IMG/VR virus record: IMGVR_UViG_3300007517_000005 | Span: 21,512-85,511 of that record | DNA: 64,000 nucleotides | From: a virus | Reading direction: 5' to 3' (one strand) | Part shown: one piece after another, positions 17 through 60,218 of the stretch | How positions within the stretch are numbered: position 1 is the stretch's first letter | Layout: each line of letters opens with the position of its first letter | The notes under the pieces: generated by a model | Databases searched by the model: none | What the model was told of the DNA's origin: nothing | The model's input: only the letters and a program-made list of their open reading frames with translations | Translations under genes and position numbers: made by a program

Positions 17-1303
17 CTAGTAAGGCATGAAGTTTAAGTCACCTTGTAGCGAGAGGCGATTATTGATGTCCCCTATAGATGCTACTGTCATGTGTACCAC
101 ACGGTATGGATACGTCAAGTAAGGCATACCTGCATTACCCATTTGTAGGTACATGCCAGGGGCCGCAGGTATATGCGTCTCCATATTAGTCCTAGACCAT
201 ATGCCCGGCTTACCATCTGGACTCTCACCAATACAGAACTGTGTACGACCAGGTGCTTGTGCCTCACCCGATGGACTCTTCTCACTAATGAACACTACCT
301 TGTTCTTAGGCCAGATACGCTTATTGATGCCATCTACAGGGTCAATGAACTGTGTATCTACTTCACGAATCTGCAACCCTGCAATGGCCGTAATCATACC
401 ATCAGGGCCGAATTGAATGAACTGACTGTACTGACTGGTACCACCTTGTTCAATATTCAATCCACTGCCATTCTGGTACATCATCATCTGCCCAGTAGAC
501 CATCGAGAGATGTTACTAGTTGATAACACAGACCTTAACTCTGGTGACATATACATTGCCGTCAAGTCTGACTTATGTGTCATCTTGAACCAGTGCTTGA
601 TGGCTTGGATAGTGTATACGTAATCACTGTATGGGTCAGCCCACGAGATACCTACATTCTGGGGGTTGATGGAGTTGGTGTCCTCGAATGACCTGAATAC
701 ACGGGCCTCATTCCTCCCCCCTATACCAGTAGTCACGTTATAACTGAATAGGTTATACGCAGGTATATTACTCGCTACATCTGTAAACACTCCAGTCCTA
801 GGGTCTGTATAGCGTATACCACCCAGTAACATACGTGCCCTGAACACATCCCATGTAAGGTTATGCTCCGCTACCATCGTGGCAATCATCTTCTGGATCT
901 GCTCACCAGTAGGGTATGGGTCATTACAATTCCTTACCCTGTTATTGATCTCCCCATAACATAGCGATGTACTCTGCCTAATGAATAGAGGCTGTACATA
1001 GAACATCCTCTCCCTACCATAGTTTGGGCCTACTAATACGTCGGGCTTACATGGGAGTACAATTGGGAAGATAGTGTGATTGGGCTCCATTGATTGACGC
1101 ACCACTACAGTCTGTGCTTCAATTGTCTCTACCGGGAATAGCTCCGTCAATGGAGTCACACCTAGCATGGGGATGTATGATTCCGCTAACTCTGTGAATA
1201 CACGCCCCCATTGCGCTTCTGTAGTGCCTGTCGTAACCCATGGAGAGATGTATGGTCCAAAGTTATAAGGCCCGTTAGGTTGTGTCTGTAATCCTTGTGG
1301 CAT
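17..1303 (-). CDS. Major capsid protein (HK97 fold, lambda gpE-like)
   Basis: 428 aa, directly downstream of the protease/scaffold gene; LTELFP...HNLTWDVFRARMLLGG...IWPKNKVVFI...GRTQF...GMPYL pattern resembles gpE-like capsid proteins. Confidence 0.72.
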   Translation of the reverse strand: MPQGLQTQPNGPYNFGPYISPWVTTGTTEAQWGRVFTELAESYIPMLGVTPLTELFPVETIEAQTVVVRQSMEPNHTIFPIVLPCKPDVLVGPNYGRERMFYVQPLFIRQSTSLCYGEINNRVRNCNDPYPTGEQIQKMIATMVAEHNLTWDVFRARMLLGGIRYTDPRTGVFTDVASNIPAYNLFSYNVTTGIGGRNEARVFRSFEDTNSINPQNVGISWADPYSDYVYTIQAIKHWFKMTHKSDLTAMYMSPELRSVLSTSNISRWSTGQMMMYQNGSGLNIEQGGTSQYSQFIQFGPDGMITAIAGLQIREVDTQFIDPVDGINKRIWPKNKVVFISEKSPSGEAQAPGRTQFCIGESPDGKPGIWSRTNMETHIPAAPGMYLQMGNAGMPYLTYPYRVVHMTVASIGDINNRLSLQGDLNFMPY

Positions 1304-1335: not shown

Positions 1336-2577
1336 TTAGATAGATGTCCTAGTAGCCTTCTGGCGATTCTCAGCAGCTACCTTCTTCAAGTAACCCTCGA
1401 CACCGCCTTCTTGCTCTGTGGGCATACCTGCTAGGCCTACCTGGTGTGTCACTACTGGTGTTTGTTGTAAGGCACCCACTAATAGGTCTCTGATACTATC
1501 CATTAACGATGTCTCTACTTCCACACCACCCTGAGATAACTTTACTACCTCACCCTTAGACTCCAATGCCTGCCTAATGGCTGCGTAACGGTTCACAATT
1601 ACAGCACTCGCACCCATACTCATTAATTGGTTGACCTCTGCCTCCTGCGCTGCACGTGACGCATGATTGCTATACATCGACGCATTGGTCTCCGCCTTAG
1701 CTAATCTGTCCCTCAACTCCACTAACTCCGCCTTAGCTAATGCACTAACCCTCTCTGTCTCTGCATCCACTACCGCCTTAGCACGAGCTTCTTCTTCTTT
1801 CACACGCTCCTGGTCAGCCTTTACCTTCGCTAAGATAGCTGTTGTGATGGCCTCTACATCCACACCAGGGTGTAAAGTAGATGCCGCTGATGCTACTGCT
1901 TGGGGGATGTTTGTACTCGGTGTAATCGCATTAATCACTGGTGCTAATTCCACAGGGATTGCCACTTGGGGAATTGCCTCTGGGATACTTGTCGCTGCAC
2001 CAGTTGTGGGTGATGCTTGCTCAGGGATAGATTGTCCTGTCATATTGATCTCTCCTTGTATATTCGTGGATAATCTCATCACACTAGTTATAACCTCCAC
2101 AGGGGCGTCACCTTGTGATAGTAACTGGACCTTCTCATCTACACCCCATGGGAGGTATGGTGTATTAGTTAAGGCCACACGACTAATCGCCATGCCCCTA
2201 CGCTCACCATTACCCTTATCTAATAGGTTCCTGATGAACTCACCAGATGAGTACTCATACCCCCCTTCTGCCACTATATTGGCTGTGCCAGGGGCCACAT
2301 TGAAGTAACCATCTAAGTTATCCCCATTTACCATCAAGTACTTCAAATCACCCCTCTTACGGGCTGAGTCTGTACTATTAGGCTCTTCATCTAAATGACC
2401 GAAGGTTAAGTGAGTCTCAAATCCCAGCGCCCTTTCATTGAAGTTCGTTATCGCATCAGTGAAGTCCTGGGCAGTGAATGCTACCGTACCGTACGTATCA
2501 TGTTTCCACGATCCTACCTTCGCGATAGGTACCTTCAGTATGTTATGGGAGTTTAACTCCCCCATTGCTTCTACCAT
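1336..2577 (-). CDS. Capsid maturation protease/scaffold (Mu gpI-like)
   Basis: VPIAKVGSW, FGH, YEYSSGEF and VALTNTPYL motifs of Mu-type prohead proteases; Ala/Glu-rich coiled-coil C-terminus. Confidence 0.78.
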   Translation of the reverse strand: MVEAMGELNSHNILKVPIAKVGSWKHDTYGTVAFTAQDFTDAITNFNERALGFETHLTFGHLDEEPNSTDSARKRGDLKYLMVNGDNLDGYFNVAPGTANIVAEGGYEYSSGEFIRNLLDKGNGERRGMAISRVALTNTPYLPWGVDEKVQLLSQGDAPVEVITSVMRLSTNIQGEINMTGQSIPEQASPTTGAATSIPEAIPQVAIPVELAPVINAITPSTNIPQAVASAASTLHPGVDVEAITTAILAKVKADQERVKEEEARAKAVVDAETERVSALAKAELVELRDRLAKAETNASMYSNHASRAAQEAEVNQLMSMGASAVIVNRYAAIRQALESKGEVVKLSQGGVEVETSLMDSIRDLLVGALQQTPVVTHQVGLAGMPTEQEGGVEGYLKKVAAENRQKATRTSI

Positions 2578-2748
2578 TGTACTCTCCGTACATTACACTC
2601 CCCTAGGGTCGCAGCCATGCGGCACTCCTTTGCACGGCACTACATTAGAGTATCACGTGCCCTCTATTTATCTCTCTTACCACACGCTAAATGCTCTATG
2701 TATGTATAATGTGTGGATTGTGCACATATTTATAACTATCAAACAAAC

Positions 2749-3138
2749 ATGAGACAATTACATTGGTACGCTGTCCAATACCACATACTGCAGAAGGCTA
2801 TGGCTGGTGTAGTAATAGATGTCCTTGTAGAGCATGCCCCCACCATTGCCTACCGCAAAGCTAAGGGTAAACAACAAATCATCTCACTACCACCAGATGA
2901 TGATATATACCTCTACGTATACAGCAGCATGATAATGGAAGGGTACATCTTAGTGCCCTCCCCAGATAATACAGTACATCTATGCAGTGGTGGTTCTGCT
3001 ATATATAATGTCACTGACTCTACCTGCACGTGTCCCGCCTATACCTATAAGGGGATGGCCTGTAAACATATGCAGATGCTTAAAGGTTATTCAGTTTATA
3101 GGCTTAGAGCTATGGCATTACGTTCTAAAGCTATGTAA
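2749..3138 (+). CDS. SWIM zinc-finger protein
   Basis: YNV...CTCPAYTYKGMACKH (CxC-x8-CxH); ATG at 2749 preferred, with TATAAT at 2705-2710 upstream. Confidence 0.7.
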   Translation: MRQLHWYAVQYHILQKAMAGVVIDVLVEHAPTIAYRKAKGKQQIISLPPDDDIYLYVYSSMIMEGYILVPSPDNTVHLCSGGSAIYNVTDSTCTCPAYTYKGMACKHMQMLKGYSVYRLRAMALRSKAM

Positions 3139-4237
3139 TGCCCCTATATAATCTACAATCATACACAGAACTATTTAGTACCCTGACCTCTATACAGTTT
3201 AATCCAGGCACTACACCCTTACTCATACCCTGTGGGAACTTGTACTCTGGCGAGTAACTGATATCTACACCTAAGCCAGCCTGTAAGTATAAGTAGAATA
3301 TCATACCAGGGTCTGCACCAGTAATAGTCCCTAACTCACCATCACTCTGGTACGTGTGTAGCTGCATCGTACCATCGAAGGCTATAGGATACCATACTGC
3401 TGTAGCCCCCGTATTCTTTACTTCATAGTCTACTAATTGTACCGATAACTTACTACTCAATGTTAAAGAGGTACCACTTACAGGGCCCGTGAATGTAGCA
3501 CCACTTAATGCAGCTAAGCCCGGCGCTTCTAATAGTACTGTATCCCCTGTCGTCGATAACCTTAATGTGGGGCCGGTGGTAATAGTTCTATACTGCAGGA
3601 TCGTGCCTACCTTCCCATTATATATACCTACACCTACCCCTACATTCACACCACTATTACTCTCTCCAGGGGGTGTACTAGTAATGCCCATCACCCTTCC
3701 TTTCGTATCAATGGATAGTGTAGGGTTTGTATACGTACCCGCTAACACTCCTGTGGGCTTTAGTAATGGGTTAGGGTATCCTCCTATTAAATCTCCACCA
3801 GCTAACCCTGAAGGGGGCATAGATGTTGGATAATCAGGTATAGATATACCAGGGGTGTGAGTGTGTGAGTCTGGTATTACTGATGGGGAAGGGTACTGCC
3901 CCGATAGATCACCACCTGCTGTACCACGTGGGGGTGCACTATCCCCTTCCATAGAGAACCTCACCCACGTTGGTGCTGTGTCTAGTAATACGAACACCTC
4001 GTCTGTGTCTACTTGTCTACACAATTTACCTACATCTGTATTGGTAGAGGTCACCGCCAATCTAGCTAACTTATTAGGGAACACCCACGCAAATGGGGCA
4101 TGTACTTCCTTCGGTGGTAAATCCCTATGATTTAATACATCAACACCCTGCGGTAATTCATTAGTAGGGATAGATACCTGTACATCCCTTACCTCACCCG
4201 TAGGTAATGTTACCTTAATAGTTCCTTCTATGATCAT
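3131..4237 (-). CDS. Virion structural / fibre-like protein
   Basis: Repeated AGGDLxGxYPxP and GTYTNPTLSIDTKGRV motifs typical of fibre proteins; follows the portal gene. Confidence 0.5.
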   Translation of the reverse strand: MIIEGTIKVTLPTGEVRDVQVSIPTNELPQGVDVLNHRDLPPKEVHAPFAWVFPNKLARLAVTSTNTDVGKLCRQVDTDEVFVLLDTAPTWVRFSMEGDSAPPRGTAGGDLSGQYPSPSVIPDSHTHTPGISIPDYPTSMPPSGLAGGDLIGGYPNPLLKPTGVLAGTYTNPTLSIDTKGRVMGITSTPPGESNSGVNVGVGVGIYNGKVGTILQYRTITTGPTLRLSTTGDTVLLEAPGLAALSGATFTGPVSGTSLTLSSKLSVQLVDYEVKNTGATAVWYPIAFDGTMQLHTYQSDGELGTITGADPGMIFYLYLQAGLGVDISYSPEYKFPQGMSKGVVPGLNCIEVRVLNSSVYDCRLYRGIT

Positions 4238-4285: not shown

Positions 4286-5716
4286 TTATGAGCCTATACT
4301 AGGCTTTGTACTATCTACAGTCGGTACCGCTGCTGCTTGTTTACTACGCTTCTTACTCCTGGGGAATGAGAGTAGGTCACGTACATGATTATTATCTATA
4401 TCATCTGAAGAGTCTATGTACCCTTTATCGGTCATCATGGCTATTGCATCTACTAATACCTTAGTCTCACTCCACCTTATTGGTAACTGCGGTAAGTCCC
4501 CGTAATCGTACGCTGCAGGAACAACCCTAGGATCGAAGTTGTACTGTATTAACTGCGCTACTACTGATGATAGGAAGTCCTGCGTAACCCTCTGATATAT
4601 GCTCGTTATGAAGTGGTGGTACATCTCCACCTGCCTCTCCGATGACTGCCCTGAACCTAACCCACTATTAGTATCTCTCATTATTAAGTTGGGTATGTTC
4701 AATCCCGTCATCATCTGCAGGTCGCACATATTGATGGCATCCGTAAAGGCAGATGCAAAGTTACTACCGGTAGTCAATGCCTCTAACTTCACGGGCTGGT
4801 CTACACTTAACTGTGTCAACACTAACCCCACTTCACTCCTCATCTCCGATAGTTCCCTCGCTACTACCTCATGGTAGAACATAGGCCTATCCTCTGTAGG
4901 GTGCTGCTCATCTGATTGCTGTATTGGTACTATCGCATATACTATCGGGGTGCCATACCTATCCAATGCCACCATCATTAGATCTAATATAGACCTCTTG
5001 AATAAGTGGTACTCAAATACTGCTGTCAACATGGACTCACCCTCTGGGTTATTGCCCATCCCCTCGTGCACTGTGTGGCAGAACTTGCCCTTATTTAATC
5101 TAACCCATCCCCCTACTGTAGATGTATCCATGGGCTTGGGTACCCATATACCTGTCTGATTGAAGTCCATACCTACTGATGTAGTATTAGGTACTTTCTC
5201 CCCATGCGTTAACATACCATTAGCATTTACTACATACCTGACTTCTGTCGGGTGGTACGTTACTACATCAGTTAACCAAGTCTGTGCCTCAGATCTAGGT
5301 CCTATTTTACCACACCATATGGCTTCCCCTAACCCATCCCCCGCCCATAGACTTTGATACGTTAGATCCTTCAACCACTTCTTCACACCCCCCTTTAAAT
5401 TAGCTGCTACAAACTCCTCAATCATAGGGTGTGAGTGTGCGAAGGGGCCCGCCATTGCCGCTACAGAAGAAGCAATCATATTCAATGCCTCTTTAAAGAC
5501 TGGCTCATTGATCCTAGCGTAATCGTATGCCGCTAATAAACCAGGGTCTCTGCGCCTCCTCGTCTGGAATGTCTCCCCTGTAGATATTAAAGGGGTCGCG
5601 CGCCCCAACATACCCATCTTTCTTGGTTGTCTCCTTATTAGAGCACTAGTCCCCACGGGGGGTAATGTACTCAACCCTGATTCCTTACCGCCCGTCGGGT
5701 GCTGATCCATTATCAC
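4286..5716 (-). CDS. Portal protein (DUF935 / Mu gp29-like)
   Basis: NNPEGESML...FKRSILDLMMVALDRYGTPIVYA...GLGSG...LIQYNF pattern; 476 aa. Confidence 0.8.
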   Translation of the reverse strand: MIMDQHPTGGKESGLSTLPPVGTSALIRRQPRKMGMLGRATPLISTGETFQTRRRRDPGLLAAYDYARINEPVFKEALNMIASSVAAMAGPFAHSHPMIEEFVAANLKGGVKKWLKDLTYQSLWAGDGLGEAIWCGKIGPRSEAQTWLTDVVTYHPTEVRYVVNANGMLTHGEKVPNTTSVGMDFNQTGIWVPKPMDTSTVGGWVRLNKGKFCHTVHEGMGNNPEGESMLTAVFEYHLFKRSILDLMMVALDRYGTPIVYAIVPIQQSDEQHPTEDRPMFYHEVVARELSEMRSEVGLVLTQLSVDQPVKLEALTTGSNFASAFTDAINMCDLQMMTGLNIPNLIMRDTNSGLGSGQSSERQVEMYHHFITSIYQRVTQDFLSSVVAQLIQYNFDPRVVPAAYDYGDLPQLPIRWSETKVLVDAIAMMTDKGYIDSSDDIDNNHVRDLLSFPRSKKRSKQAAAVPTVDSTKPSIGS

Positions 5717-5795: not shown

Positions 5796-6332
5796 CTACA
5801 TCTTTGGTAATGCTATGTCGTGGAATAGACTCCTCTGTGGTGTCCTATCTTCCATAGCTTGCTTGATCTCATTAGTCTTCTCCTGCGTCTTCTTCTCACG
5901 CTCGGAGATAAACCCATTCACGGCCTTGACTACCGCCTTTCTATCGAAGAACCCTAACTCTAACCAACTTTTACCTAGTGGCAGTGATGTCGCATTGGCT
6001 ATCGCTACCCAGTTATCTAACTCTAATCTCTTAACCGTATCCTCTACGGTGTAGATTATGTGAGCCTCCCATATATTGGGGATCTCTGGGTCGTACTCTG
6101 CTACTAGATTACAAAACCTACGCGGTATGAGTCTACTACGGGAAGCATACCCTGCCTGCGGATCCTTTAAGTGTAATGGTAATGCTACACGGCCCTCACT
6201 ATAACCTAGTGGGGCCGCTGCCCTTGCATACCATGCCGTAGCATCTCTTAAGGTGTGCCACCAGGGGCCTTCGCAGGAGACCTTCTCCCACCAGATGCTG
6301 GGGGAGTGGCCATCGATGCCATGAGCTTTTTT
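5796..6332 (-). CDS. -1 frameshift extension of the tail chaperone (gpGT-like)
   Basis: The -1 frame after A AAA AAG (+ strand CTTTTTT, 6326-6332) stays open about 178 codons to TAG at 5796 and has no early start codon of its own; absent from the ORF track. Confidence 0.7.
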   Translation of the reverse strand, partial: KKAHGIDGHSPSIWWEKVSCEGPWWHTLRDATAWYARAAAPLGYSEGRVALPLHLKDPQAGYASRSRLIPRRFCNLVAEYDPEIPNIWEAHIIYTVEDTVKRLELDNWVAIANATSLPLGKSWLELGFFDRKAVVKAVNGFISEREKKTQEKTNEIKQAMEDRTPQRSLFHDIALPKM

Positions 6333-6679
6333 GCCTGCTCTTGCGCCTGCGCCCTTAACTTATCGTCAATGAATGCAATCGTCATGAATAACTCAAGGAA
6401 GTACTGTACCTCCTTCGGGTCCCACTCCATAAACAATTGGATTGGGTCTCTCCCAAACTCTACTTGCTGACCCATCTCATCTACTACACGCTGCCCATCT
6501 ACTTCTACAATAGATGCCGCTGCCATTAACTCCTCTAATGTATAACCCTGCTCCCTTGGATTATTACCCGCATACGATTGATACTGCTTTGCCAGATACA
6601 CACGATCCTCGAATGTGAACTGCCGTACCTTGACCTCACGGCCCGATGGTAATACTACTGGGTATAATACTGAATCCAT
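6248..6679 (-). CDS. Tail assembly chaperone (gpG-like)
   Basis: 143 aa, VVLPSGREVKVRQFT start; in-frame slippery heptamer A AAA AAG near the 3' end. Confidence 0.68.
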   Translation of the reverse strand: MDSVLYPVVLPSGREVKVRQFTFEDRVYLAKQYQSYAGNNPREQGYTLEELMAAASIVEVDGQRVVDEMGQQVEFGRDPIQLFMEWDPKEVQYFLELFMTIAFIDDKLRAQAQEQAKKLMASMATPPASGGRRSPAKAPGGTP

Positions 6680-6828
6680 TTTGCTCTTACCTACTATTGG
6701 TTATTACTTACTACATCTATTCCTATACGCCGATATGTTACACATAGTGGGCATTTATAAGATGAGTACACGCACGGTGTGTGCCCCCTCTGATGTAAGT
6801 CGCTACGCTCCAGGTGTGCGATACTACC

Positions 6829-9800
6829 TTATCCTACCACGTTTACTTCCCAATCATCCCCTTCTGAGTAATCACTCTCACCACTTGGGTATGCACTGAA
6901 GTCCGTAGTGGGATTATCCATCACATACGATACCTCTATAGCCGCTCTCATAGGGTCTCCATCATCATCCATTACCGTACCCTCACCCACTTGCGCTAAT
7001 CTCTCCCCTATCATATCCTGCCTCTTTGATTCTGTTTCTGACATACTCCTCACGAAGCTCTCTACAATGCCTAGTGATGGTATTAAGTTAGTGCCATGCA
7101 CTGCTACCTCCCCCCCTATTACGGATGTGAGCATCCCTAGTACAGATGATAGTACTGCACCTCCTAATGTATTGGAGGCCGCCTTCCACCCCTTGTACCT
7201 ATCTACATCCATAGGTCTATCTACACGTAAGGGGCTAAACTTAGATAGTATCCTCTCCGCACCACCCATAATGGCAGGGGCTATTACCGCTGCACCCATA
7301 AAGAACCCTACCTCTCTACCAACCCATCTCCTTACCCACTCCCCCTCATCCTGTGAACCCTTAGACTCCGCATGTGCCATCCTCGCTCTAAATGATTGCC
7401 CTAGTACTGACGCCACACCTGGTCTACCCATTTGCGAGTACCCTAACATCGATACCGTCCCACCCACTACCTGCCCTATTGTATTCTCGTTGATAGAGCC
7501 GGTCGCCATTAGTGAACCTAAGAGTGTGAGCCCTGCACCCAATACCATGTCATTCATGTCGTGCATCCTACCTACGGCATCGTGCATCTCCTGACTATGC
7601 CTTGCATGACTAGCCGCCTGAGCTCCTGGATTCATGCCCGTTAGTACTGCCCTAGGGGGATTTGATGTTACTGCCTGTGCCCTCAAGGCAGCACTAATTA
7701 TAGGCGTAGACGCATCGCCCATCTCTCTACCCCGTATCTCTCTGGTCTCCGCCTGGTGCAGTGGATCTCTTGCCTCTACTATGGCCTCTTGTGACGCCTG
7801 CTGCGCTGTCATACCCTTGGATACCTTCTGCTCGGATAGTCTCCGGATGGTCGCTGATAATACTTCAGCTTCTGGTAATGATGCCCCTAACGCACTACTG
7901 ATTGTGCCAGCCCATGATTGATCTGAGTGCATGGTCTGACTATTGAACGCATCCCCTATATTATCTAGTAATCGTCTCCTCTGTCCTGTTGATGTAGCCT
8001 CTAATGCTACATCCAAGAACCCCATGGGGGAGCTATGCTCACCTATCACCTCCCCCGCGCTATTCCTTACATTGAACTTCCTATAACTCTCCCCCTCCCC
8101 TAATGGGTCATCATGGTACCCTACACGTATACCCCCATCCTTCTTATTGATGACCCTTACGCCTACACCACTCACACTATTCAACTCAAGGAAGCTCCTA
8201 CCACCTTGAGTCTGACCTAGTACCTGCTCCATACCTGTACTATCGCCCATGAAGTCCTTCATCACGGTCATGTAATGTGAGGCAGCCTCTGGGTCTATGC
8301 CATTCATACTACTATTCATTAGGGCTATCGTTATATCTGTATCCGCTAACTCCGTTGATATGCCTGACATTGTCTGAGACCTACCGCCCCCTAACTTCCC
8401 TGCCTTCTTCCTCAATGTCTCTAATGTGACGAACTGATTCAATCCCTCCCCTACACTACCGAAGATAGGGTCTGTCTGTTTCCTCCCTTCATCTACTAAC
8501 GCCAGCATTAAGGCCTTGTTCTTGCTCGAAGCTTCATCCCACCACTCATTCGCATCCTTTGATAGGGCCGCCCCTATGTCAGCCTTCAATGAGGGGTCGG
8601 ATATGAACTTCCTATCCATAGCCTCATCCCGATCCACATCCTCCCCAACCCCTAAGAAGCCACGTATGCCACTCCATATTGTATCTAGGAATGGTTGATT
8701 GTCTTTTGACCCTAGTTCGTAGCGGAAGGCAGTAATCGTAGCTCTCATGTCCCTCGCTACTTTGTACCTGACTACATCCCCAATAGTCCCATCTGATACA
8801 TCCACACCCCTATCGCGCATCTCACTACTCAAGCGCGTCATCTCCTCATTAGATGAGATCTTGTACTCCTTACTCAAAAATGCTATAGAACTATCATCTA
8901 TGCCTGTCAGGGGCTTACCATATACATTATTACTTGATGTCTCTATCAGGGTACTTAACTGCATGTATGACCGTAATCCAGGGCCAGGGCCTAACTTACC
9001 CGCCATCTCACTCAAGACTGCCCTCGCACTCGCATCATCCCCCTGGTCAATGTACTTCTGGTACTCCCCATGTGTCTTCTGTAAATCACCTAATACATCC
9101 GTGTCCCCCTTGAATTTGATACTATCCCTTAGTAGCTGCTGTGCACTCTTCATGAATGCCTGCAATGACTCCGCTCTCTTCGCCTCTATATGTACCTGAT
9201 TGAATGTCCCCTCTACATCATCTGCCATAGTGGTACCAGCATAGTACTCCTTCATACTATCCATCACGGTACTGCCACCCTCACCGCCTAGTACATGCGA
9301 TAGAGCTATTAAGGGACTATCGCGGAATAAGGTACCCACTAGGGCATTGTATGACTTACCTAATATGTCACCGCCCGCTACCCCTAATGTCTTCGTTAAC
9401 ATGTCATATACTGTGGGGCTCATTGATGCACCACTACCCATACCCATATACTTACTGTAATTGGATACTGCTACCTCTGATGATGATAGTTGGGCCGCAC
9501 CCTCCATTAGGCTACTACTTACATCCTGCTCAGGCTTAGCTAAGATAGACTCCATCATCTTAGTTATTACGTCTGCTCTCAATGATGGGTTGTTTGTTAA
9601 TAGCTCCCTGAAGTGATTATCAGACACATCCTTCAACATCACTGACGTATCTATATTGGAGGTAGATAATGCCTCACTTATTGATGCACCCTGCTTGAGT
9701 GATGATAATGCACTTCTGAAGTCCTCTGTTGCATGTATAGACTCCATCGTCGCATGTAACGCCATGATGTTATTATCGTGCGCTACCCCTTGTACCCCAC

Positions 9801-12800
9801 CGAATAATCCCCTCGATTGCTGTAAGTACGTAGGCAGTACCTCCATTGATATGGGCTTCTCCTGGTACTCACTCATGAATGCTTGCGATACCCCTAAGTA
9901 AGATGACACCTCCTTCCTCAGTAAAGGGTCATATGTCTGCGCTAATGTATCCCTCACCGAGGACATCTCCGCATCTATAGCTTTGATCCTCATGCCTATC
10001 TCCTCATTAGCTATGCGGTACTCATCACTCGCTAACCAATACTCATCTAAGTACTCACCCCCATTACTACTCGCCTGCTTCCTCAGCATCCCCTGCCTTA
10101 ATGTATTACTCTTCACCCTATCCGTTAGCCTCTGCCTATCATTCATGGCAGTCCCTATCTTGGAGAAGATTACCGTGAAGTTATCACCATCATAATCTAG
10201 TAACCCCAGTGCATGACCTGACATCACGGGCATTAACCCCAGGCTCTTATTGCGTCTCTCATCTAACTGTGACATCCCCTGACTCTCTAAATACACATTC
10301 AAGTTCTTCACTAACCCCACGGCTGTAAATTGCTGTCTCTGTAACTCCGTAGAACCGAATGGGGCTGACCTGAAGACTGTTGCCTGCAATACATCAGATG
10401 TATTTAGAGATACCTGTAATGACTCCATACGCGCTAAGGGGGCCTCAATAGATGTCCACTCACCCCTACCCTTATGTAATGTATCTAAGGCGCTACTTAA
10501 CTCCCTTAACTCTGTGCGGCTTGTCTCTATTAACTCCTTCTGGGAAGTGTCGTAACCATATGCACTATCTACTCTCTCAAGTGATACCAATAGTTCATCT
10601 ATAGATACCTTAGATCTATCCACAGAGTCCGCTAATAACTCCCTACTCTCACCCATCCCTAATCCCTGGAATAGACTCCTATCTATCCTATACGTCTCTA
10701 TACGCCCTCGTACACTACCCTGCCACTGCCCCATACTATCTGCATTGATAGCCCTCCCTAACTGTTCTATGAGGTTCTTATTAGGGACTACCTTCTCACC
10801 CGCTGCCATTGCCTGCTCACGGTTAGCGTACTCCTCACCACCTACCATGAATGATGACATCGTCTCCGTACGTGAGAACAACCCCTCCCACTCCTTCGTG
10901 GCGTTCTCTCTTCTTCTAGGGTCTGCTGCTATCTGCTGTCTCTCTACTATCTCTCTTAACCTCCCTGTCGGGAGTGCTAACGACCTTGTTACCTTATCCC
11001 TCTGCTTACCCGTCCACGATGACTCTACTGTCTCGTACTTCCTATAATAATTACCATCCCCTGACTCTGATACACGTAATTGACTATCGCCCCCTACACT
11101 GTATCTCTTGAACCAAGTACCGCCCTCTTCGTTATAACTACTGCTAGTGTTGAATGCTGTATCGAACTGCCTGCGTTGGTACTCAAGCTGCGATGTAACA
11201 TTACCCTCCGCCTCCCTTAACCTAGTCAGTGTTCCCTTCTTTAATGTTATATCCCCGTACGTGCCAGTAAAGGCCACACTCTGCTCTAGAACGCGCGATA
11301 ACCTCCCTAATGGTGGTAACTCATTAGCTGTTGTCTCTATTAATAAGGATGGTGTAATAGACGTATATGGGTCTATACGGTATGGCTTATCTTTACTAGA
11401 TACGTACTGGTCATCTAACGCTAACCTAGCACGCCTCTCACTACCCTCGTATACCTTCTTACTCCTTAACCATGACTCTAATGCTGGGGGGTTTACTGTC
11501 CTCTCGTAACTGTTCTCCCATACACCACTCGCACTACGCAAGACCTGCTCCCCTAGCTCTACTGCAAAGTAATTACCCTCATTACCCTCTCGTGCACCTA
11601 CTATATCTCTATAACTCCTCACACCTGGTAAGTTCGGGATATCTTCTGTACCCACACGGGAACGGGTATAATCCTTTATCTCCTGCGTTATACGGTCTGC
11701 TTGTACCTGGCTCACACCTATACCAGACCTTGTCTCCATTAGGGTAGATACATGGTTAGCATCTTGTATAGTCCATAACCGGGCCGCTATATATTCCTTC
11801 TGTAGTAAAGGGTTCCTTGTTATGTACTCTACATCCCCTTGCACTGTACGCAATAACATTGAGCCCTTCTCCCCCATACCACCCATTAAGGCATCCCTCT
11901 CCGCTTTCAACAATCGCATGCTATCCCTTGATGCAGGATCGGATAAGGAGCGTGTTACCTCCTCTAATCTCTGACGGCGTAGAGAATCACGTACATCCCC
12001 TGCACCACGCATACCTTCCTCGGGGGCTAAAAACATCCCCTGTGGTAATCCGAATGTGGCGGCGAATGTACCCACAAACCCACGTAATCTCGCCTCCATC
12101 TTCAAGCGTGTACCCGTTGATGCCTCCGCTATCCTCTCCACAATCCCATACGCGGTCACATAATAGTTCTGTAGTGCTTTCACCTCATCTGCTGTGAACT
12201 CTACAGACCCCGCCCCTGTTGCCTTTACCTTCGATAAGGTAGAGAATATATTACCTATTGCAGTTCCTGGACTGAATGCAGATGCTAGTGTTAGTGTACT
12301 CCTCACTAATTCATCTGTATACGATCCATACTGGATACCATATGTTCTTAAGTCCTCTGCACTGGGTAGGTAGAAACTAGTACCTGGTGATACATCGTCG
12401 AACCTCGCAATGATGCGCCCTGACTCCGATGGCATACTATCGAATACCACCGCTGGTAAATGATATATACCTCTCTCATGCGACATCTCTCTGGCTATAG
12501 CTTCTGCCTCCCCCACACCAAATGCCTTAGTCGCTAGTAACTCATATCTCCTACCCACATCCTGTATGGCTGATAGGGATGTACTATACTCACCCCTCCA
12601 CATAGAACCTAACAATGATTGCGTGTGTATACTACTGGGATTACTAGCCTCGAATAATAATGTACTCAACTCACTCCCTAATGTGCGTACATCCCCCACA
12701 CCACTTGCTAGGGCAGTCACTCTCTCTTCAATAGCTATCTGTACCGCCCCACCATAATCTTTATATGACTTCTTCAGGGCCGTTATATCCTCCATCCCTG

Positions 12801-22188: not shown

Positions 22189-23437
22189 ATGAAAAGAGCA
22201 CTCGTTGAGAGACATACTGTACTCCTCGCTACAGTCGGCAGTATCGCATATGGTCTGACATTATCTACCTCCGATAAGGATATCAAAGGCATCTGCATCG
22301 CACCCGCTGAATATTACTACGGTCTCAAACAGTTCGAGCAGAAGGATAAAGGCTGGGATGATACAACAGATCTCTCAAGTGGTCTATTCCCAGTCCTTGA
22401 TGGTATTAAAGACTGCACTATATATGAGCTCAAGAAGTTCCTCCGCCTGGCCATGAATAATAACCCCATAGTACTGGAGATGTTATGGCTCAACGATTAT
22501 GAGTACTTATCTACAATAGGGCGTGCACTTGTTCGTAGTAGACATCTATTCCTATCCAAGAAGGTCAAGCATACCTTCCCAAGGGTCGTAGCCTACGGCA
22601 CCTACATAGGCTACGCATACGCACAACTGAAGAAAGTATCTACACATAAGTCATGGTTACTCAACCCCCCTACTGCTAAGCCTCAAGCTAATGACTATGG
22701 CTTAGATGATGCACACCTCCCTGTCGGGAGTGCTAACGACCTCCCTGTCGGGAGTGCTAGCAACGCTGTGAGCGTAGCGACTAACGACCTCCCCTTAACT
22801 AAGAGTCAGATGGGCTCATTCCTAGAGTACATACTAGTGCTCACTAAAGATAGTATTGAATTCATGGAACCCGTGGCTGAACTCAAGAAGCTACTACTCG
22901 AAGATATAGACCTTACCGCTATCGTTAAACAGAGACCACTAACTACTGATGTTATACCCTATGTGCAGGCATTGACACGTGGTAGTACAAACTTCATGCA
23001 ATTACTACAAGCTAGTCAGGCTTATAGGAAGGCTATCTCTGAGTGGGATAACTACCAACAATGGAAGACTAATAGGAACCCAAAGAGGGCCGCACTTGAA
23101 GCACATTGTGGGTTTGACTCTAAACATGCTGTGCATAGTGCCGCATGGCTGCGACTGCCAAGGAGTGTACGTCTATTACGTCAAGGTCTTGAGGTGTTAC
23201 TACATGGTACCCTCACTGTTGATAGGCGTGGTTGATAGGCGTGACGCGGGTGATGCACCGCAGTTACTCGCTATACGTAATGGTGAGTATACCTATGAGC
23301 AAGTCATTGAGATAACTGATGCCCTATTCCTAGAAGTAGATGAGGCTTATAAACTATCCACTCTACCTCATGGGGTGCATCAGGAACATATAGATATACT
23401 GTGCACACAGTGGGTGCGAGATAGTCTGAGTAATTAA
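22189..23437 (+). pseudogene. Predicted nucleotidyltransferase (YcgL/RlaP/NrdC.11-like), frameshifted near the 3' end
   Basis: GSIAYGL..SDKDIKG, NNPIVLEML, GYAYAQ, RNPKRAALE..GFDSKHA..RLL; the C-terminal DAGDA..LLAIRNG is in another frame owing to a 13-bp tandem duplication (23218-23243); three in-frame element insertions. Confidence 0.85.
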
Positions 23438-31327: not shown

Positions 31328-32232
31328 ATGAACTACATAGACATTCACGATAAGATCATTGGTACCACGCACAGTCTAGAATTATTACCGCCTTCTATTT
31401 TGGAGGATGTACTGAATACCTAGCAACGCTGGGAGCGTAGCGACCTACTGTACATTCAATTATGTCAGAGATATGCAGCACCCGTCTATCAAGGTAAATA
31501 TACATGCTGCTATGGATACGGGTATGGGTACTTACCGCACTGTGTGCACTGTATTGATTGATAATCTACCTAGCATACTCTTCTTAGTGAATACTGATCG
31601 TGAAGAATATGAGTACTCCTATGAAGAGCTGCAACTTAGTTGACATATGAGTGTACAATGTCGTATTATACATGTAACGAGTTGAGGGCAGGATTATAAA
31701 TTATGTTACCCCTGAAGAAGCAGCACAGCACTTAGGTGTTACTTAACCCATAACTATAAGGTTATACTTCTGCTTACCTTTGAGACTTCCAACATGGTGG
31801 CCAAGGTAAAGAGAAGGATTGGGTCTAAGACTGCCAGGGTCATGTTAACGAGGTTCAAGCAGACATTAAAGCATCAAGCTGAACTTTGCTCCCGTGAGGT
31901 AGTAGAAGTGTCTGAAGCCTACACCAGTAAGACTTGTACCAAGTGCGGACAAGTACATACAAAGCTAGGTCGCTACGCTCCCAGCGTTGCTAGGCAGTTC
32001 CAAGATCTTTAGGTGCCCTTGGCATTATGCTAAGGGCTTTGAGGGATATCTCCACTACATTAAGTAGTGCTATCATTGACCCCTGAGTAGTGATATTCAG
32101 GAATGTTCAGTGTAAATATATCAGCTAGGTGGTACACGTATGTTGTACGGTAAGGCATACATCTATGAGCGCAGAGTCAGTGGCTATGTCGAGAACACAG
32201 AAGGGTTAGGGGTTTTACTAGACCGTAGATAA
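31328..32232 (+). pseudogene. 127-aa gene broken by a family A element and an IS607 remnant
   Basis: Removing 31423-31447 and 31629-32124 restores one uninterrupted ORF (MNYIDIHDK...EYSYEE|LGGTRMLY...LLDRR*). Confidence 0.7.
31629..32124 (+). mobile_element. Internally deleted IS607-family element (tnpA and tnpB remnants)
   Basis: YVTPEEAAQHLGV (TnpA HTH start); TnpB C-terminus FKQTL..VSEAYTSKTCTKCG..KLGSSKIFRCP..GIMLRAL; AG at both boundaries. Confidence 0.8.
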
Positions 32233-41296: not shown

Positions 41297-41911
41297 ATGT
41301 TAGTATTAGCTCTGTCTGTTGTCTCCGTGGTATGTGTGGTATCTATTGTATCAGTCGTGTATTTGTACCAACAAGTACAGTCGATGAAAGCTCAATTGGT
41401 GGCAGCACACACCAATACCTCGTTCGATTGTCTCACTCGCACTGGTGTGCGGGTCACGTGGAAGGGCGGTCGGCAGGGATTGATCTTTATGGATCTAGAT
41501 CACATGCACGGCTTGAATAGCCTCCTAGGTTATGCACAAGTAGATGCACTGATCCACCGCGCCCTTGCTACCTTGCGTAGCACCGATGCAGTATCATCGA
41601 TCGGGCAATGGATGAGTGGTGATGAGTTCATCATCACCTGCTTTGCAGGTGAGGAAGTGGGTCTCGCCACGCGGCTGCGTGGTGTCATGAGTGATATCAC
41701 TCAAGAGTTACGGATGGATTCATCCATCCAAGCTAAGCATGCAGAGTTACTGGCTACGGATGCTCGGTATGGCATGTCAGCACCTACGTTTGCAGCCACC
41801 TATGGCTGTGTCACCACAGTGACAGGTGCATCACTAGAAACAGAGGTGAACCGCGCCTCTTTTAAGGTACAGGCTGCAAAGGCCGCCAATGATCGTGGAA
41901 CTGTAAACTAG
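41297..41911 (+). CDS. Membrane-anchored GGDEF-domain protein (diguanylate cyclase-like)
   Basis: N-terminal TM helix; DCLT, FMDLDHMHGLNSLLG..D, SGDEF. Confidence 0.8.
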   Translation: MLVLALSVVSVVCVVSIVSVVYLYQQVQSMKAQLVAAHTNTSFDCLTRTGVRVTWKGGRQGLIFMDLDHMHGLNSLLGYAQVDALIHRALATLRSTDAVSSIGQWMSGDEFIITCFAGEEVGLATRLRGVMSDITQELRMDSSIQAKHAELLATDARYGMSAPTFAATYGCVTTVTGASLETEVNRASFKVQAAKAANDRGTVN

Positions 41912-41930
41912 GCTCTGTATATTTATCTAG

Positions 41931-41963
41931 TAGTAGGCCCTACCCATGGGCCTATTATTGTAC
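41931..41963 (+). promoter_or_regulatory. Conserved intergenic hairpin motif, copy 2
   Basis: Identical to copy 1. Confidence 0.75.
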
Positions 41964-41983
41964 ATACTCAAAGGATAAAGATC

Positions 41984-42535
41984 ATGACTAACTCTAACTT
42001 CGATTACGTAAACAACTACACTCCCGAAGTGGGTGTAGCAATGGACTACTACGCAGCGTCACTGGGTGAGATGTTTGCAGCAGAAGAAGCATTAAATGTC
42101 GCCAAAGAAGCAGAAGAAACAGCATTAGCAGAAGCTGATGCAGCCTCACTACTCAATCACACACAAGAAGAATATCAGTACTACCACCGTACAGTGGTAG
42201 CATTGTGTGCAGCAGAAGATGCAACCTCTGCCGCCCGTACAAACTACGATGCTGCGTGTGCAGCATGTCTAATTCAATTAGACAATCTCTTAGCCGCAGA
42301 GGCAGCAGTATTGTACAACTTATACTGGGACGCCCAGTTAACGGTGTACGCTGCTGAAGAAGCAGAAGAAGCTGCATTAGCAGAAGCTGATGCAGCGTCC
42401 TTACTAGATCACACGCGCGAAGAGTATCAGTATTATCAACAGACAGTAGTAAAACTACGCACTGCGGAGGAGGCTGTGATAGCAGCCTGTGAATTACTGG
42501 TAGTAGCTGCGGTGGCTGCAAGCATCACAAAATAA
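41984..42535 (+). CDS. Acidic Ala/Glu-rich helical protein with internal duplication
   Basis: ALAEADAASLLxHTxEEYQYY twice; very few K/R; AAGGA RBS. Confidence 0.65.
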   Translation: MTNSNFDYVNNYTPEVGVAMDYYAASLGEMFAAEEALNVAKEAEETALAEADAASLLNHTQEEYQYYHRTVVALCAAEDATSAARTNYDAACAACLIQLDNLLAAEAAVLYNLYWDAQLTVYAAEEAEEAALAEADAASLLDHTREEYQYYQQTVVKLRTAEEAVIAACELLVVAAVAASITK

Positions 42536-42597
42536 CCCTTCTTTTAGTAGGGGGATCCCCAATCCCCTTCTCTTGACCCCCTTACCCCCTAACATAT

Positions 42598-43251
42598 ATG
42601 TCTATTAACTACTACCACCAAGTCTGCGGCACAGAAACAACCACGACTCGCCTCGCGCGTGGTGGGTGCGGTACATTGACAATGGCCGGCCACTGGGCCG
42701 GCTACAATTGGATATCAAAAGTAGATCAGAGTGGATGTGCAATGCCACTCGTCCAACGTGAGTGGGAGATACTCAAAGAGTTACAAAACACTGGCTTAGT
42801 GCCAGTAGTGAGCCCTGTCTCACCGCACATAAACGGTAGTATCATGCACATCCAGTGCATCGATAATGCTGCCAGTCTGCTTGACTATACACAAGCATAT
42901 CTAAATGGGTTAATACCTATTGGGGTATTGCGGGACATATTAACATTAGTGGTAACTGCTGTTACCACGTTCCACTCACTCGGGTGGGTGCACAACGACC
43001 TACACAATGGGAACATTGTCGTAGGACATAACCAGTACACATGGGAAGTGTACATAATCGATGTGGCCATGGCCACACGCGCAGAAGAAGAGGTACCAGA
43101 AGCCTTAGCAGAGGCATTTAGTATACCTCACTTACCCAGTGAGGACTGGTACTTCCTCAAGTGGTCAATAATGGCCGAGGCGGAGGAGTACGAGGACGCG
43201 GATAAGGGGCGGGAGTTGCAAGACTTAGTTGATGAATTGATACCTGAGTAA
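42598..43251 (+). CDS. Protein kinase-like (Ser/Thr, RIO/Kdo/APH fold)
   Basis: LARGGCG, K..REWEIL, HNDLHNGN, IIDVAMA. Confidence 0.8.
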   Translation: MSINYYHQVCGTETTTTRLARGGCGTLTMAGHWAGYNWISKVDQSGCAMPLVQREWEILKELQNTGLVPVVSPVSPHINGSIMHIQCIDNAASLLDYTQAYLNGLIPIGVLRDILTLVVTAVTTFHSLGWVHNDLHNGNIVVGHNQYTWEVYIIDVAMATRAEEEVPEALAEAFSIPHLPSEDWYFLKWSIMAEAEEYEDADKGRELQDLVDELIPE

Positions 43252-43255
43252 TTAG

Positions 43256-43288
43256 TAGTAGGCCCTACCCACGGGCCTATTATTGTAC
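43256..43288 (+). promoter_or_regulatory. Conserved intergenic hairpin motif, copy 3
   Basis: One loop substitution relative to copy 1; precedes the polymerase gene. Confidence 0.75.
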
Positions 43289-43309
43289 TTACAACAATCA
43301 ATGAATATC

Positions 43310-46300
43310 ATGGCTACTTCAAACAACGGTTCCATTGTTTCTACCACCACCTCTACTACTCCTTCTGCTACTCCTTCTGCTACTACTATGAACACTACAT
43401 CTACCTCTTCCATCTACAAAGCTGCTGCTGCAGCCCGCAAAGCAGCAAAGGCAGCAGCAAAGGCTGCACCAGGTATTGCCATTCGTGCAGCGAAAGCAGC
43501 TAAGGCTGCAGCCATTGAAGCTGAACGTGAGGCAACTAAGGTTGCCGCTATTGAAGCTGCGCGTGCGGCTGCAGCTATTGCCACTGCTACACGGTTTGAA
43601 GTCTACTGCTACTTGACTGTAGCCTCTATTAAGGGCAATGCTGCCACTGCGGCAGTTATGGGTTCTACCACATTGGTAGTAGCCGCTGCCTTTGCAGTAG
43701 CAGTCTTAAAGGTACGCCGCCCACGCAAGGCCACTCGTGCCGCTCGTAAAGCAGCCGCACGGAAGGTAATGGGTATTGCATCTCGCAAGGCTAACCGCCC
43801 TTCTAACCGCCCCTCTCGCGCTACAGTAAGCACTTCTAGTGCGTTTGTACGTAAAGTGCACCGCAACAGCATGGCTGTTAAGCGTGCAGCACGCATGGGT
43901 GCATTAGCTGTGTATCAGTATGTAGCTATTGCTACTGCTGTCGCGGCACCTGTTCTGGCTAACACTTCTACCTCTGAAGTAGAAGCTATACTAGAACGCC
44001 CTAAGCGCACTGCGAAGGTAATGCCTTTAGCTTTGGTACGACCCAACGTACGAGCAGTACGCCACTATATTGCAGTTGCAGTTGCAGTTGCAGTTGCAGT
44101 AGAGGTAGAGGTAGAGCCTACTACTGCATTCTCACGCACTGAAAAGGCCGAGGCTGACAAAGCTAAGGCTTCATTGAAGGGCAGCCGCACAAAGGCGCAG
44201 GACGATGCTATCGAAGCTAAAGCTAAACGTAAAGCTGAAGCTAAGGCTAAGAAGGCTGCTAAGTCTACTTCCACCCCCAAGACTAAGACTGATAAGAAAG
44301 ATAAAGGTAAGGGCATCACCTCTGAACGCAAAGGAGCCCACAACCTAGTTGTGGCGGGCCCTACCGCTGACAACTACGGTTGGGTAGAGATATCCAATGA
44401 GGAGTTACTCCTCTCCCTTGAGTCTTCAGACTCTCATACTGCAGTAGGTCAAGCTGCAGAAACTATTCACAAGGACAATAACGACATGACTACTAACTTC
44501 TCCCCTGAAGTAATCACAAAGAACTTAGAATGCTTACTGGCTGGGGTTATTACTCCCGCAGAAGCATTCCTATTGGCACAGCACCAAACTGTAGCCGCCA
44601 CAACTGTGGTAGATGGTTCTGTGGTGTGCATGAAAGCACCCGCAACTCCTGCTACATTAGCGCCTGTGACTAATGTAGAATTGGCCTACACAAGCGAAGG
44701 CCGGTTCTACCCTGCCAAGGCTTTAACCAAAGAGTACTTTGCAATCCCGGCAGACTTCTACGCTATGGAGTCCATCCGTATTGCGTACAAATCAATGAAG
44801 TTGGATACTCACACGTATAACTTCTACGATGAAGGTGGCACTGTCTCTATTAAGACTAACAAACACAACAACAGTATCTTCATCAACAATTCCCACCCTC
44901 GCATCTACTTAGTAGATGGTGTAGAGTACCACTTCAACAACTTGTTGGAGGCAGTGTTCAATGAATCTATATCTGCCACTAATGCAGGTGTGCTAGAACA
45001 GTGGGCTGACTTCAATATTGAAGTTACAGGAGTAGCTGAAGATTTGGGGTGTGACTTAGAAGAAGCTACTACTCTAGTAGTAGCAGCAGGATTTGTTAAA
45101 CCAGCCCAACCTATCCACTACATAGTCCCTATCGCAGAGCGTGTAGAGACTAAAGAGAAGGGTAAGTTTGAGTATAAACTGAATGAGAAAGCTATCATCG
45201 AGAGTGCAGCCTTATGGGAAGAACAAGGCTATGAAGTACTCGTTATTAAAAGCGAGTTAGTGGTTAGCAACCTCTCTGTAGAGAACTTCCGCTACAACGG
45301 GTGCATTCCTTGCGAACCCATTACTAACCGAGAGCTAGAGCGGTTAGTATTGAGTGAGGTTGTACAGAAATGGAGTGCTGATAATATCCACTTATCAGTG
45401 AAACCCATATCCAACCTGTCTGAATGGTTGGATAAGGTAATGAACTCCAATACCGGCTCTGTAAAGAGCATTAGTTTCTCCTTCAATAACATCACCAATA
45501 TACAGCAACGTATATCTGATGTGAAGGGATTCTCACACGAGTTCACCTTCGCTACTCCCAAAGATCACTACGATGCTTTAGGTTTGGAGGAGGGTTCTGT
45601 ACCTGCGTTTACAATTAACTTGTGGACTAGCGCCCCTGCTAAATCTGCAGTAGTAAGCCAGAAGGTTATGGCAGATGTCTTAACCAATGTACCAAAGTTA
45701 GAACGCCGCACTGGTACACAAGGTTCATCTTTGTCTGTGCGCGGCTTATTTGCACAGAATGCAGGTCGTAATAATGTGAAGCCTGATGCTCCAAGACAAT
45801 CATTAGCTCATAAAGTGCTCGCTACTAATGTTGTAGCTTCAACCACTAGTGCATCAGTCACTAATGAAGTGATTACACCTACTGTTGCTGAGGCTAAAGA
45901 GGCTACCGCTTCGGCTGTTGTCATAGACACAGTATCTGGTGGGGCCGCTTTTGAGGTAGATTCAGTTGGTGGTGCATTAGATACAGCCCCAGTTATTAAT
46001 GCTGGTGATGTATTAAAACCCGCAGCGTCTAGCAAACAATCAGCTACTCCTGTAGTAGCTACAACCTTGAAAGACGTAGATAGTCAATTACTAGCCTTGA
46101 CTGGCTCATCATCTGATGATGAAGAAGAAGAGATTGATTTAGATGATATGGATCTCTGCCAAGCAGTAGAGTTGAAGGAAGTAAAGTTTACTCCTAGCTA
46201 TGATGGCGACATCAAAACTATCATAAACGACTTAGATTTGGCTATAACAACCATACCCGCAGGTGGTGACTACGGGAACTACCTCAACGATGTGATATCC

Positions 46301-59997: not shown

Positions 59998-60218
59998 TTC
60001 TAGTAAGAGGCCCGGCTCTATAAATAGCAAGAAGTAGGCACACACCCATAAATACCTACTCCCTGCTATAAACTACATGTGTGCAATCTACTATGATTAC
60101 ATTAATCATAGTAAATTGCATAATCTCTAATCGTAAGCTGTGTATAACAACAGTTGACACTAAAGGCAGCCGCAGCCATGCGACACTATGCAGCCTCTGT
60201 CACCCATGCAGTGAAGGT

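Follow-up and report, generated by a model that had tools for sequence, protein, structure and literature searches.

What does a protein of 3,897 amino acids (aa) do when its gene stands beside a phage's portal and capsid genes, and could it carry an RNA polymerase into the next host cell? The question is raised by the window analyzed here, a stretch of 64,000 nucleotides (nt) that covers positions 21512-85511 of the 85.5-kb IMG/VR record IMGVR_UViG_3300007517_000005 (estimated completeness, 51%). In the giant protein encoded there, a nuclease-type phospholipase D (PLD) domain is combined with what is probably a single-chain two-barrel RNA polymerase and with membrane-type helices, an arrangement that is apparently unreported. 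On balance, we favor the view that it represents a new family of packaged and ejected RNA polymerase with a PLD nuclease-like domain and a membrane-type C terminus.

6829-18522, minus strand: giant gene (3,897 aa), heading a minus-strand run in which a small open reading frame (ORF), the portal gene, and the major capsid gene come next.

The ORF is uninterrupted over its 3,897 codons and begins with GTG, with an ATG two codons in. A first-pass annotation, made from the letters of the DNA, had listed a series of motifs in this ORF, and all of the quoted strings were found at the expected aa positions. The phage itself is a Fukuivirus-like (Ma-LMM01-like) contractile-tailed cyanophage. Its major capsid protein (17-1303, minus strand) shows 83% identity with the counterpart in Microcoleus phage My-WqHQDG and 42% identity with that of Microcystis phage Ma-LMM01 (genus Fukuivirus); a megablast search of phages gave no match.

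Ma-LMM01 gp080 (3,562 aa, annotated "hypothetical protein") proved to be a full-length homologue of the giant protein, at 22-24% identity. A HMMER search with aa 2600-3300 then yielded 44 representative clusters, almost all of 3,000-5,400 aa, and the few short cluster members resemble contig fragments. As revealed by a motif census, the same order holds across the family: an HKD motif near aa 300, Q-H-x-K near 600, IPQRLKN near 1200, L-x-K-G-V near 1500, N-P-x-N-x-K-S 45 residues farther on, R-x-x-P-x-G at 2500-3100, D-x-D-G-D 60 residues past it, and L-G-K-x-Y-N 280 later. One to three hydrophobic segments lie 100-270 aa before the C terminus in most members. Since the key residues are invariant across the family, the quoted motifs are not chance strings, and the domain order given at first pass (PLD, polymerase motifs, membrane-type C terminus) is correct. 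The sole PHROG match of the giant protein is phrog_31006, whose function is unknown.

16543-17910, minus strand: bilobed PLD/HKD phosphodiesterase-like domain, about aa 205-660, identified by PF13091 and by invariant residues.

In the first half of this domain, HQKVMVTD at aa 309 and GSLN at aa 322 give H309-x-K311-x4-D316-x5-G-S-x-N325, plus E342, with a D316-to-GS spacing one residue below the consensus HxK(x)4D(x)6G[GS]xN. The second half contains HSKQY at aa 581 (H581-x-K583), GSSN at 612 (S613-x-N615), and NRE at 637 (N637-x-E639). In the family alignment, H309, K311, N325, and E342 of the first half and H581, K583, N615, and E639 of the second are invariant (30/30), and position 316 is D or E; therefore, the catalytic His and Lys are kept in both half-sites. 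A Pfam scan of the whole 3,897-aa protein was empty, PLD included; on the fragment of aa 195-700, PF13091 (PLDc_2) scored 33.1 bits against a cutoff of 27 and covered aa 217-328. The PLD domain proposed at first pass is thereby supported. Most homologues carry PF13091 in precomputed annotation, and BFVD lists the Ma-LMM01 homologue as a "PLD phosphodiesterase domain-containing protein."

Searches for closer PLD relatives were less productive. The nearest NCBIfam models, DpdK and NucT, fell far below their cutoffs, and the two halves aligned with each other in register in HHalign without reaching significance (E value of 0.32). A PDB sequence search with the PLD fragment gave nothing significant, and a PDB profile search reached a single PLD chain, that of poxvirus K4, at the HKD motif (E value of 0.9). 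When shorter, stand-alone PLD relatives were searched for, only truncated copies of the giant-protein family were found. We regard the presence of a PLD domain as very probable. Judged from its residues, the domain is probably a bilobed, active PLD-type phosphodiesterase, for which a nuclease activity is more likely than a lipase activity.

11773-15075, minus strand: beta-like (second-largest-subunit-like) RNA polymerase module, aa 1150-2250, identified by AlphaFold2 and Foldseek and by conservation.
13732-13905, minus strand: presumed beta-type double-psi barrel motifs, aa 1540-1597, LFKGVAV followed by GLVNPSNLKSF...HGG.

The evidence for a polymerase begins with this central module. Its conserved motifs are K-x3-IPQRLKN-x2-G-x-R (aa 1211-1226), L-x-K1545-G-V, and N-P-S-N-L-K1590-S...H-G; FKGVAV lies at aa 1544 and LVNP at aa 1583, and K1545 and K1590 are at least 90% conserved in the 40-member family alignment. 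AlphaFold2, given 20 family members, modeled aa 1150-2250 with a mean predicted local distance difference test (pLDDT) score of 70.3 and a predicted template modeling (pTM) score of 0.55 and placed the K1545 segment on a beta-strand inside a beta-rich block. When this model was compared with the PDB by Foldseek, the best 50 matches were all (50/50) second-largest subunits of RNA polymerases, spanning bacterial beta (including cyanobacterial), archaeal RpoB, subunit 2 of Pol I-V, vaccinia, and phiKZ, with E values of 0.014-0.083, probabilities up to 0.97, and 230-570 aligned columns. In BFVD, the first match was the Ma-LMM01 homologue (E value of 4e-31), the next ones being subunit-2 proteins of RNA polymerases from baculoviruses, poxviruses, giant viruses, nudiviruses, and a jumbo phage. 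For a predicted model, chance would hardly explain such an exclusive list of subunit-2 matches in both libraries.

A parallel with Escherichia coli beta can also be drawn by eye from the sequences, without statistical support: beta has G-N-K1065-G-V with N-P-L-G-V-P-S-R-M 33 residues on, and the giant protein has K1545-G-V with N-P-S-N-L-K1590-S 40 residues on. Because Foldseek gave no aligned residue ranges, we infer the barrel placement on the K-G-V motif.

10153-10380, minus strand: beta'-like catalytic motifs, aa 2715-2790, F-R2718-S-A-P2721-F-G2723 and L-D2776-Y-D2778-G-D2780-N-F-T-V-I-F.
8623-10125, minus strand: conserved helices past the Asp triad, aa 2800-3300, including two near-invariant motifs.
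10723-11835, minus strand: variable linker, about aa 2230-2600, unalignable in distant members and holding a copy of a palindromic mini-element.

The second half of a two-barrel enzyme would be provided by the region around the Asp triad, in which FRSAP lies at aa 2717 and LLDYDGD at aa 2774. Across all 40 aligned family members, which share only 20-30% identity, P2721, G2723, D2776, D2778, G2779, and D2780 never vary, and R2718 is at least 90% conserved. The family form F-R-S-A-P-F-G...about 50 residues...L-G-D-F-D-G-D-x-Y-T-x-I-F resembles N-R-A-P-T-L-H...N-A-D-F-D-G-D-Q-M-A-V-H of beta', and the equivalent in the crAss family is Y-R-I-P-N-Q-G...G-S-D-F-D-I-D-K-M-Y-V-M. The form D-[YF]-D-G-D-x-Y-x-V also resembles a motif of eukaryotic RNA-dependent RNA polymerases. 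When the family profile was aligned with E. coli RpoC by HHalign, the best local match was to residues 450-469, the NADFDGD loop (P value of 0.076), which is only suggestive.

Past the triad, G-x-x-I-L-G-K-x-Y-N (3047-3059, about 280 aa on) and Q-L-L-R-D-S-I-K-x-K (3128-3137, about 350 aa on) are near invariant and, from their positions in the sequence, may sit about where a bridge helix and a trigger loop are expected. HHalign aligned neither motif with the RpoC bridge helix. The match of G-x-D-I-L-G-K-T-Y-N with bridge-helix D-T-A-L-K-T-A-N seen by eye is therefore unsupported by HHalign, and we keep it as a lead only.

The order of beta-like and then beta'-like motifs is kept in all family members. 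The same order holds in all single-chain two-barrel polymerases (PMC10770324), and that of the giant protein matches it. Between the two modules, the equivalent of aa 2230-2600 is the sole stretch that cannot be aligned between distant members. In this linker, at 10959-10986, we noticed the 28-nt palindrome ACCTCCCTGTCGGGAGTGCTAACGACCT, which lies in frame (aa ~2513-2522) and encodes RSLALPTGRL, a peptide missing from the closest full-length homologues. An exact copy lies at 22715-22742, with related ones at 19282, 37403, and 54532.

Several results weigh against a packaged polymerase. The AlphaFold2 model of aa 2600-3300 has a mean pLDDT of 61.8, with values below 50 over both motifs and helices everywhere else, and Foldseek found no match for it, so that no fold was recovered for the catalytic barrel. 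Because this model is poor, the catalytic barrel is backed by motif conservation and position and not by fold. The two putative barrels are about 1,230 aa apart, wider than in known enzymes; the Foldseek E values of the beta-like module are modest (0.014 at best); and the second PLD half has no Asp at +7, contains a variable insert, and has no Pfam match. Homology searches were negative as well. Pfam found nothing in the whole protein or in five fragments from around the polymerase motifs, from the second half of the PLD domain, and from the C terminus. A six-frame scan of the virus record with PF05183 (RdRP) and PF00623 (Rpb1 domain 2) gave no candidates; PF05183 was positive in a Bacillus subtilis control, a signal that we take to be the SPbeta YonO polymerase (the tool named no locus). 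Nothing significant came from PDB searches with the sequence and two family profiles, and nothing from HHalign comparisons with gp66 from phi14:2 (a crAss-like phage) alone, with a 24-member alignment of crAss gp66, or with E. coli RpoB. Finally, no virion proteomics for the Ma-LMM01 group was found in the literature, and the Ma-LMM01 transcriptome study ascribes all three of its gene classes to sigma-70-like promoters (PMC5780444).

The failed homology tests agree with the published low similarity among two-barrel families, which have little in common beyond the Asp motif (PMC10770324). With no profile-level homology, the giant protein therefore fits no described polymerase family. Membership in the crAss gp66 family was rejected, as the HHalign probability against the 24-member gp66 alignment was below 1%. 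In the supplements of the study that catalogued 23 families (PMC10770324), Microcystis, LMM01, cyanophage, and the gp080 accession are absent, and a literature search turned up no paper that ties a two-barrel polymerase or PLD to Ma-LMM01, gp080, cyanophages, or Fukuivirus. The Ma-LMM01 polymerase described in PMC2579912 is an unrelated TV-Pol element. The RNA polymerase proposed at first pass is supported for its beta-like half, whose fold matched RNA polymerase subunit 2 only, whereas for the beta'-like half there are the motifs and no recovered fold. Taken together, we consider a polymerase core in the giant protein quite likely.

4286-5716, minus strand: Mu-type portal gene (Pfam PF06074, E value of 7e-19; synteny), separate from the giant protein.
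5796-6679, minus strand: 143-aa ORF overlapped by a -1 frame (187 codons, no start codon), the pair always separating the giant gene from the portal gene.

Whether such a protein could enter the virion was approached through its gene neighborhood and its expression. After the giant gene, the minus strand carries, in order, the 143-aa ORF (6679-6248), the portal gene (5716-4286), two unknown genes, and the capsid gene. Given that the portal and major capsid genes lie downstream of the 143-aa ORF, the giant gene belongs to the head module. The tail sheath, presumed tube, and baseplate genes are found at 9-17 kb of the record, and the capsid and portal genes lie between these and the giant gene, which is more than 10 kb from the tail module. 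At record positions 6593-11063, the tail/baseplate region also encodes clustered cell-wall enzymes, namely, an M23 peptidase, a protein of the Amidase_2 type, and a baseplate-like protein to which a beta-lactamase-family domain is fused.

Among 21 related IMG/VR loci (contigs of 16-252 kb), the giant gene adjoins the cassette of the 143-aa ORF and portal gene in 15, and in most of the remaining loci the flank on the cassette side is largely missing. Its orientation varies: it may lie on the same strand as the cassette and upstream of it, as here, or be divergent, as in Ma-LMM01. By phage lineage, the gene stands in opposite orientations between the same two neighbors, a 114-aa ORF and the small-ORF-plus-portal cassette, which therefore implies in-place inversion of an 11-kb single-gene unit. 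Transcripts of Ma-LMM01 gp080 are absent at 0 and 1 h and increase at 3 and 6 h, and the gene shares its expression subclass with the portal gene (PMC5780444 Table S3). Such timing agrees with a protein destined for the next infection, as opposed to an early enzyme. These data indicated that the giant gene belongs with the structural module and not with the early genes.

The neighborhood also bears on two further claims of the first-pass annotation, namely, that the gene adjoins a tail chaperone and that its product may double as a tape measure. The former was not confirmed: the 143-aa neighbor finds no chaperone among PHROGs, Pfam, or NCBIfam (no Pfam or NCBIfam match at all, and its PHROG, phrog_32670, is of unknown function), it sits beside the portal gene and not beside tail genes, and portal and capsid genes follow. 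The start-less frame of 187 codons overlaps the 3' end of the 143-aa ORF, fills the gap to the portal gene, and is conserved beside the portal gene in at least six related loci; a frameshifted product is therefore plausible. The 143-aa protein may serve as a chaperone for the hydrophobic end of the giant protein. As for the tape measure, the giant protein matches no tape-measure family in PHROG or Pfam, and its gene is linked to the portal, so the tape measure was rejected as a primary reading. A scan of the tail module likewise recognized no tape measure by family; the gene at the usual tape-measure position encodes 622 aa without a family assignment.

A related explanation survives best among the alternatives, namely, that the giant protein is an ejected structural or effector protein, located inside the head or in the tail lumen and possibly a tape measure, in which PLD is the sole enzyme and the "polymerase" motifs are structural or metal binding. 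It would account for the catalytic barrel that AlphaFold2 did not recover and for the failure of all sequence and profile tests for a polymerase, as well as for the region past aa 2800, which is predicted to be all helical and tape-measure-like. It also gains from the lack of a recognized tape measure in the tail module, from the pair of overlapping frames, reminiscent of G/GT, that adjoins the giant gene, and from the precedent for giant tape measures in phage P23-45 (PMC10770324). However, such a protein would hardly be expected to give a model of aa 1150-2250 whose best 50 PDB matches, along with most BFVD matches, are RNA polymerase subunit 2, and invariance of D-x-D-G-D and R-x-x-P-x-G in 40 members at 20-30% identity would be odd for a spacer. 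Moreover, the linkage is to the portal gene and not to the sheath, tube, and baseplate genes beyond the capsid genes, and tape-measure matches in PHROG and Pfam are lacking. We therefore regard this explanation as unlikely.

18388-18522, minus strand: strongly basic N-terminal 45 aa (17 K/R, no D/E), by composition.
7099-7548, minus strand: three Gly/Ala-rich hydrophobic helices, aa 3659-3808 (segments 3659-3677, 3734-3756, and 3784-3808).
6832-7005, minus strand: acidic C-terminal tail, with 15 D/E in the last 60 aa.

The second alternative accepts the PLD-RNA polymerase fusion and denies its place in the virion: the enzyme would be made from mid-infection onward, transcribe middle and late phage genes, and remain unpackaged. 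This would agree with the "middle" class of Ma-LMM01 gp080 (cluster 2, B5; rising from 3 h), with the divergent transcription unit of its own that the gene forms in LMM01-type genomes, and with the fact that no proteomic placement in virions was found. Yet the portal gene and other structural genes are also in the B5 class, adjacency to the portal gene is kept in both orientations, and the middle and late promoters of Ma-LMM01 are sigma-70-like (PMC5780444). The termini listed above, which confirm the basic N terminus and the Gly/Ala-rich hydrophobic helices reported at first pass, point the same way: a basic N terminus, large size, and conserved C-terminal hydrophobic helices are features of ejected proteins, not of cytoplasmic polymerases. 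An unpackaged polymerase thus seems quite improbable. From synteny, timing, and these features, we infer that the giant protein is a virion protein. To this extent, the ejected virion polyprotein proposed at first pass has gained support, from the portal linkage in 15 of 21 loci and from the non-early expression of gp080. Provided that the giant protein is a polymerase, its packaging and ejection appear rather likely.

Least probable is that the two-barrel core belongs to another polymerase, either a QDE-1-like RNA-dependent RNA polymerase or a PolD-like DNA polymerase/primase for replication, because PF05183 is silent on the virus record and positive in the B. subtilis control, the structural matches are DNA-dependent multisubunit enzymes, and RNA-dependent synthesis has no evident use in a double-stranded DNA phage, even though the Asp motif resembles that of eukaryotic RNA-dependent RNA polymerases as mentioned above and two-barrel cores also occur in PolD (PMC10770324, PMC7281927).

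The preferred reading is thus a deep-branching two-barrel polymerase family that is encoded among the head genes of Ma-LMM01-like cyanophages and is probably delivered with the DNA. The polymerase would consist of a beta-like module (about aa 1200-2230), the variable linker, and a beta'-like module with the D-x-D-G-D magnesium site at 2776-2780. Synthesized alongside the structural proteins, the giant protein would be loaded into the head by way of the portal region and later ejected via the tail, with its C-terminal helices engaging the cell membrane. Once inside, the polymerase would start transcription of the first phage genes on the incoming DNA, in the manner of N4 gp50, crAss-like gp66, and P23-45 gp96, and the PLD domain, which most resembles small nucleases of the Nuc/NucT/DpdK type, may cut nucleic acid (host DNA or RNA, or the phage's own ends) and not lipid. 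More tentatively, at a little short of an even chance, Ma-LMM01-type phages and a wider set of uncultured phages of 100-250 kb may inject a PLD-fused, membrane-anchored polymerase that couples transcription to DNA entry.

Among lytic phages of toxic Microcystis blooms, Ma-LMM01 and its relatives serve as the models. In the Ma-LMM01 transcriptome, there are three temporal gene classes, host transcription does not change, and no phage polymerase is known (PMC5780444). An injected polymerase, if true, would address how the phage runs these three classes, and the published view that an unmodified host polymerase serves all of them would need revising. The giant protein would then be without precedent in two respects, as a single-chain two-barrel virion RNA polymerase from a contractile-tailed phage and as a fusion of PLD with a polymerase. 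It would also contribute one more deep-branching two-barrel family, for which no sequence link to the 23 catalogued ones could be detected, and a contractile-tailed member to the phages that deliver their own transcription enzyme (N4, crAss-like, P23-45, and phiKZ-like).

Elsewhere in the window, a second giant ORF (43283-53044, plus strand; 3,253 aa) has no Pfam family and a weak metalloprotease PHROG match at aa 972-1028. About 80% of it is conserved in Microcoleus phage My-WqHQDG, at 42% identity; in Microcystis phages, only the C-terminal ~350 aa is. Three tandem 69-nt units lie directly 3' of it (53187-53415). Just 5' of it, the interval 41297-43251 (plus strand) holds a small ORF with a GGDEF-like match (22.9 bits against a cutoff of 23.8) along with a 217-aa ORF bearing a kinase domain of the Kdo/WaaP type (PF06293). 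Several families of short hairpin-forming repeats, for example, CTAGCAACGCTGGGAGCGTAGCGACCTA and GTGCCGCATGGCTGCGACCCTT, are distributed over 18600-64000 between genes and sometimes inside them, with sites such as 22744-22784, 31407-31447, 59386-59426, and 60206-60246; they may be mobile mini-elements, terminators, or promoters used by a phage polymerase.

Among known systems, gp50 of phage N4 is a protein of about 3,500 aa that is packaged in the head and ejected for early transcription, with a central polymerase whose flanks serve packaging and ejection; this polymerase is of the T7-like right-hand type, a fold unrelated to the two-barrel type. The working model for the giant protein is gp66 of the Cellulophaga crAss-like phage phi14:2 (PDB 6VR4; bioRxiv 10.1101/2020.03.07.982082), a giant two-barrel enzyme on a single chain whose gene lies in the structural block; it has an R-x-P...D-F-D-x-D catalytic segment and is packaged and ejected for early transcription. 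The giant protein differs from gp66 in having DxDGD instead of DFDID, and gp66 has neither a PLD domain nor C-terminal hydrophobic helices; phi14:2 is a podovirus of Bacteroidota, whereas the giant protein belongs to a cyanobacterial myovirus. A precedent for fusing a polymerase to a delivery protein is gp96 of the Thermus phage P23-45, in which a two-barrel polymerase is part of a 5,002-aa virion protein that passes through the tail and has a membrane-active end (PMC10770324). In that siphovirus, the polymerase is N terminal (aa 1-1200) and the remainder is a true tape measure encoded in the tail module. In the giant protein, by contrast, the putative polymerase is central, with PLD before it and about 600-1,100 aa after it, and the gene is portal linked.

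Compared with the multisubunit enzymes, the giant protein has K-G-V...N-P...[KR]-S and R-x-P...D-F-D-G-D motifs that follow the order of those in E. coli RpoB and RpoC and are similarly spaced inside each barrel. Unlike beta/Rpb2 and beta'/Rpb1, it is a single chain with no similarity by Pfam or hidden Markov model searches and no recognizable clamp, sigma-binding, or other lineage domains. Its PLD domain has the HxK...GSxN chemistry in common with the nucleases Nuc, NucT, DpdK, and BfiI and with the poxvirus K4 nicking-joining enzyme, a PLD nuclease that is itself packaged in the virion. All of the matches to such enzymes are weak and below curated cutoffs, and the giant protein differs in that its single chain carries two halves, 270 aa apart, fused to a putative polymerase.

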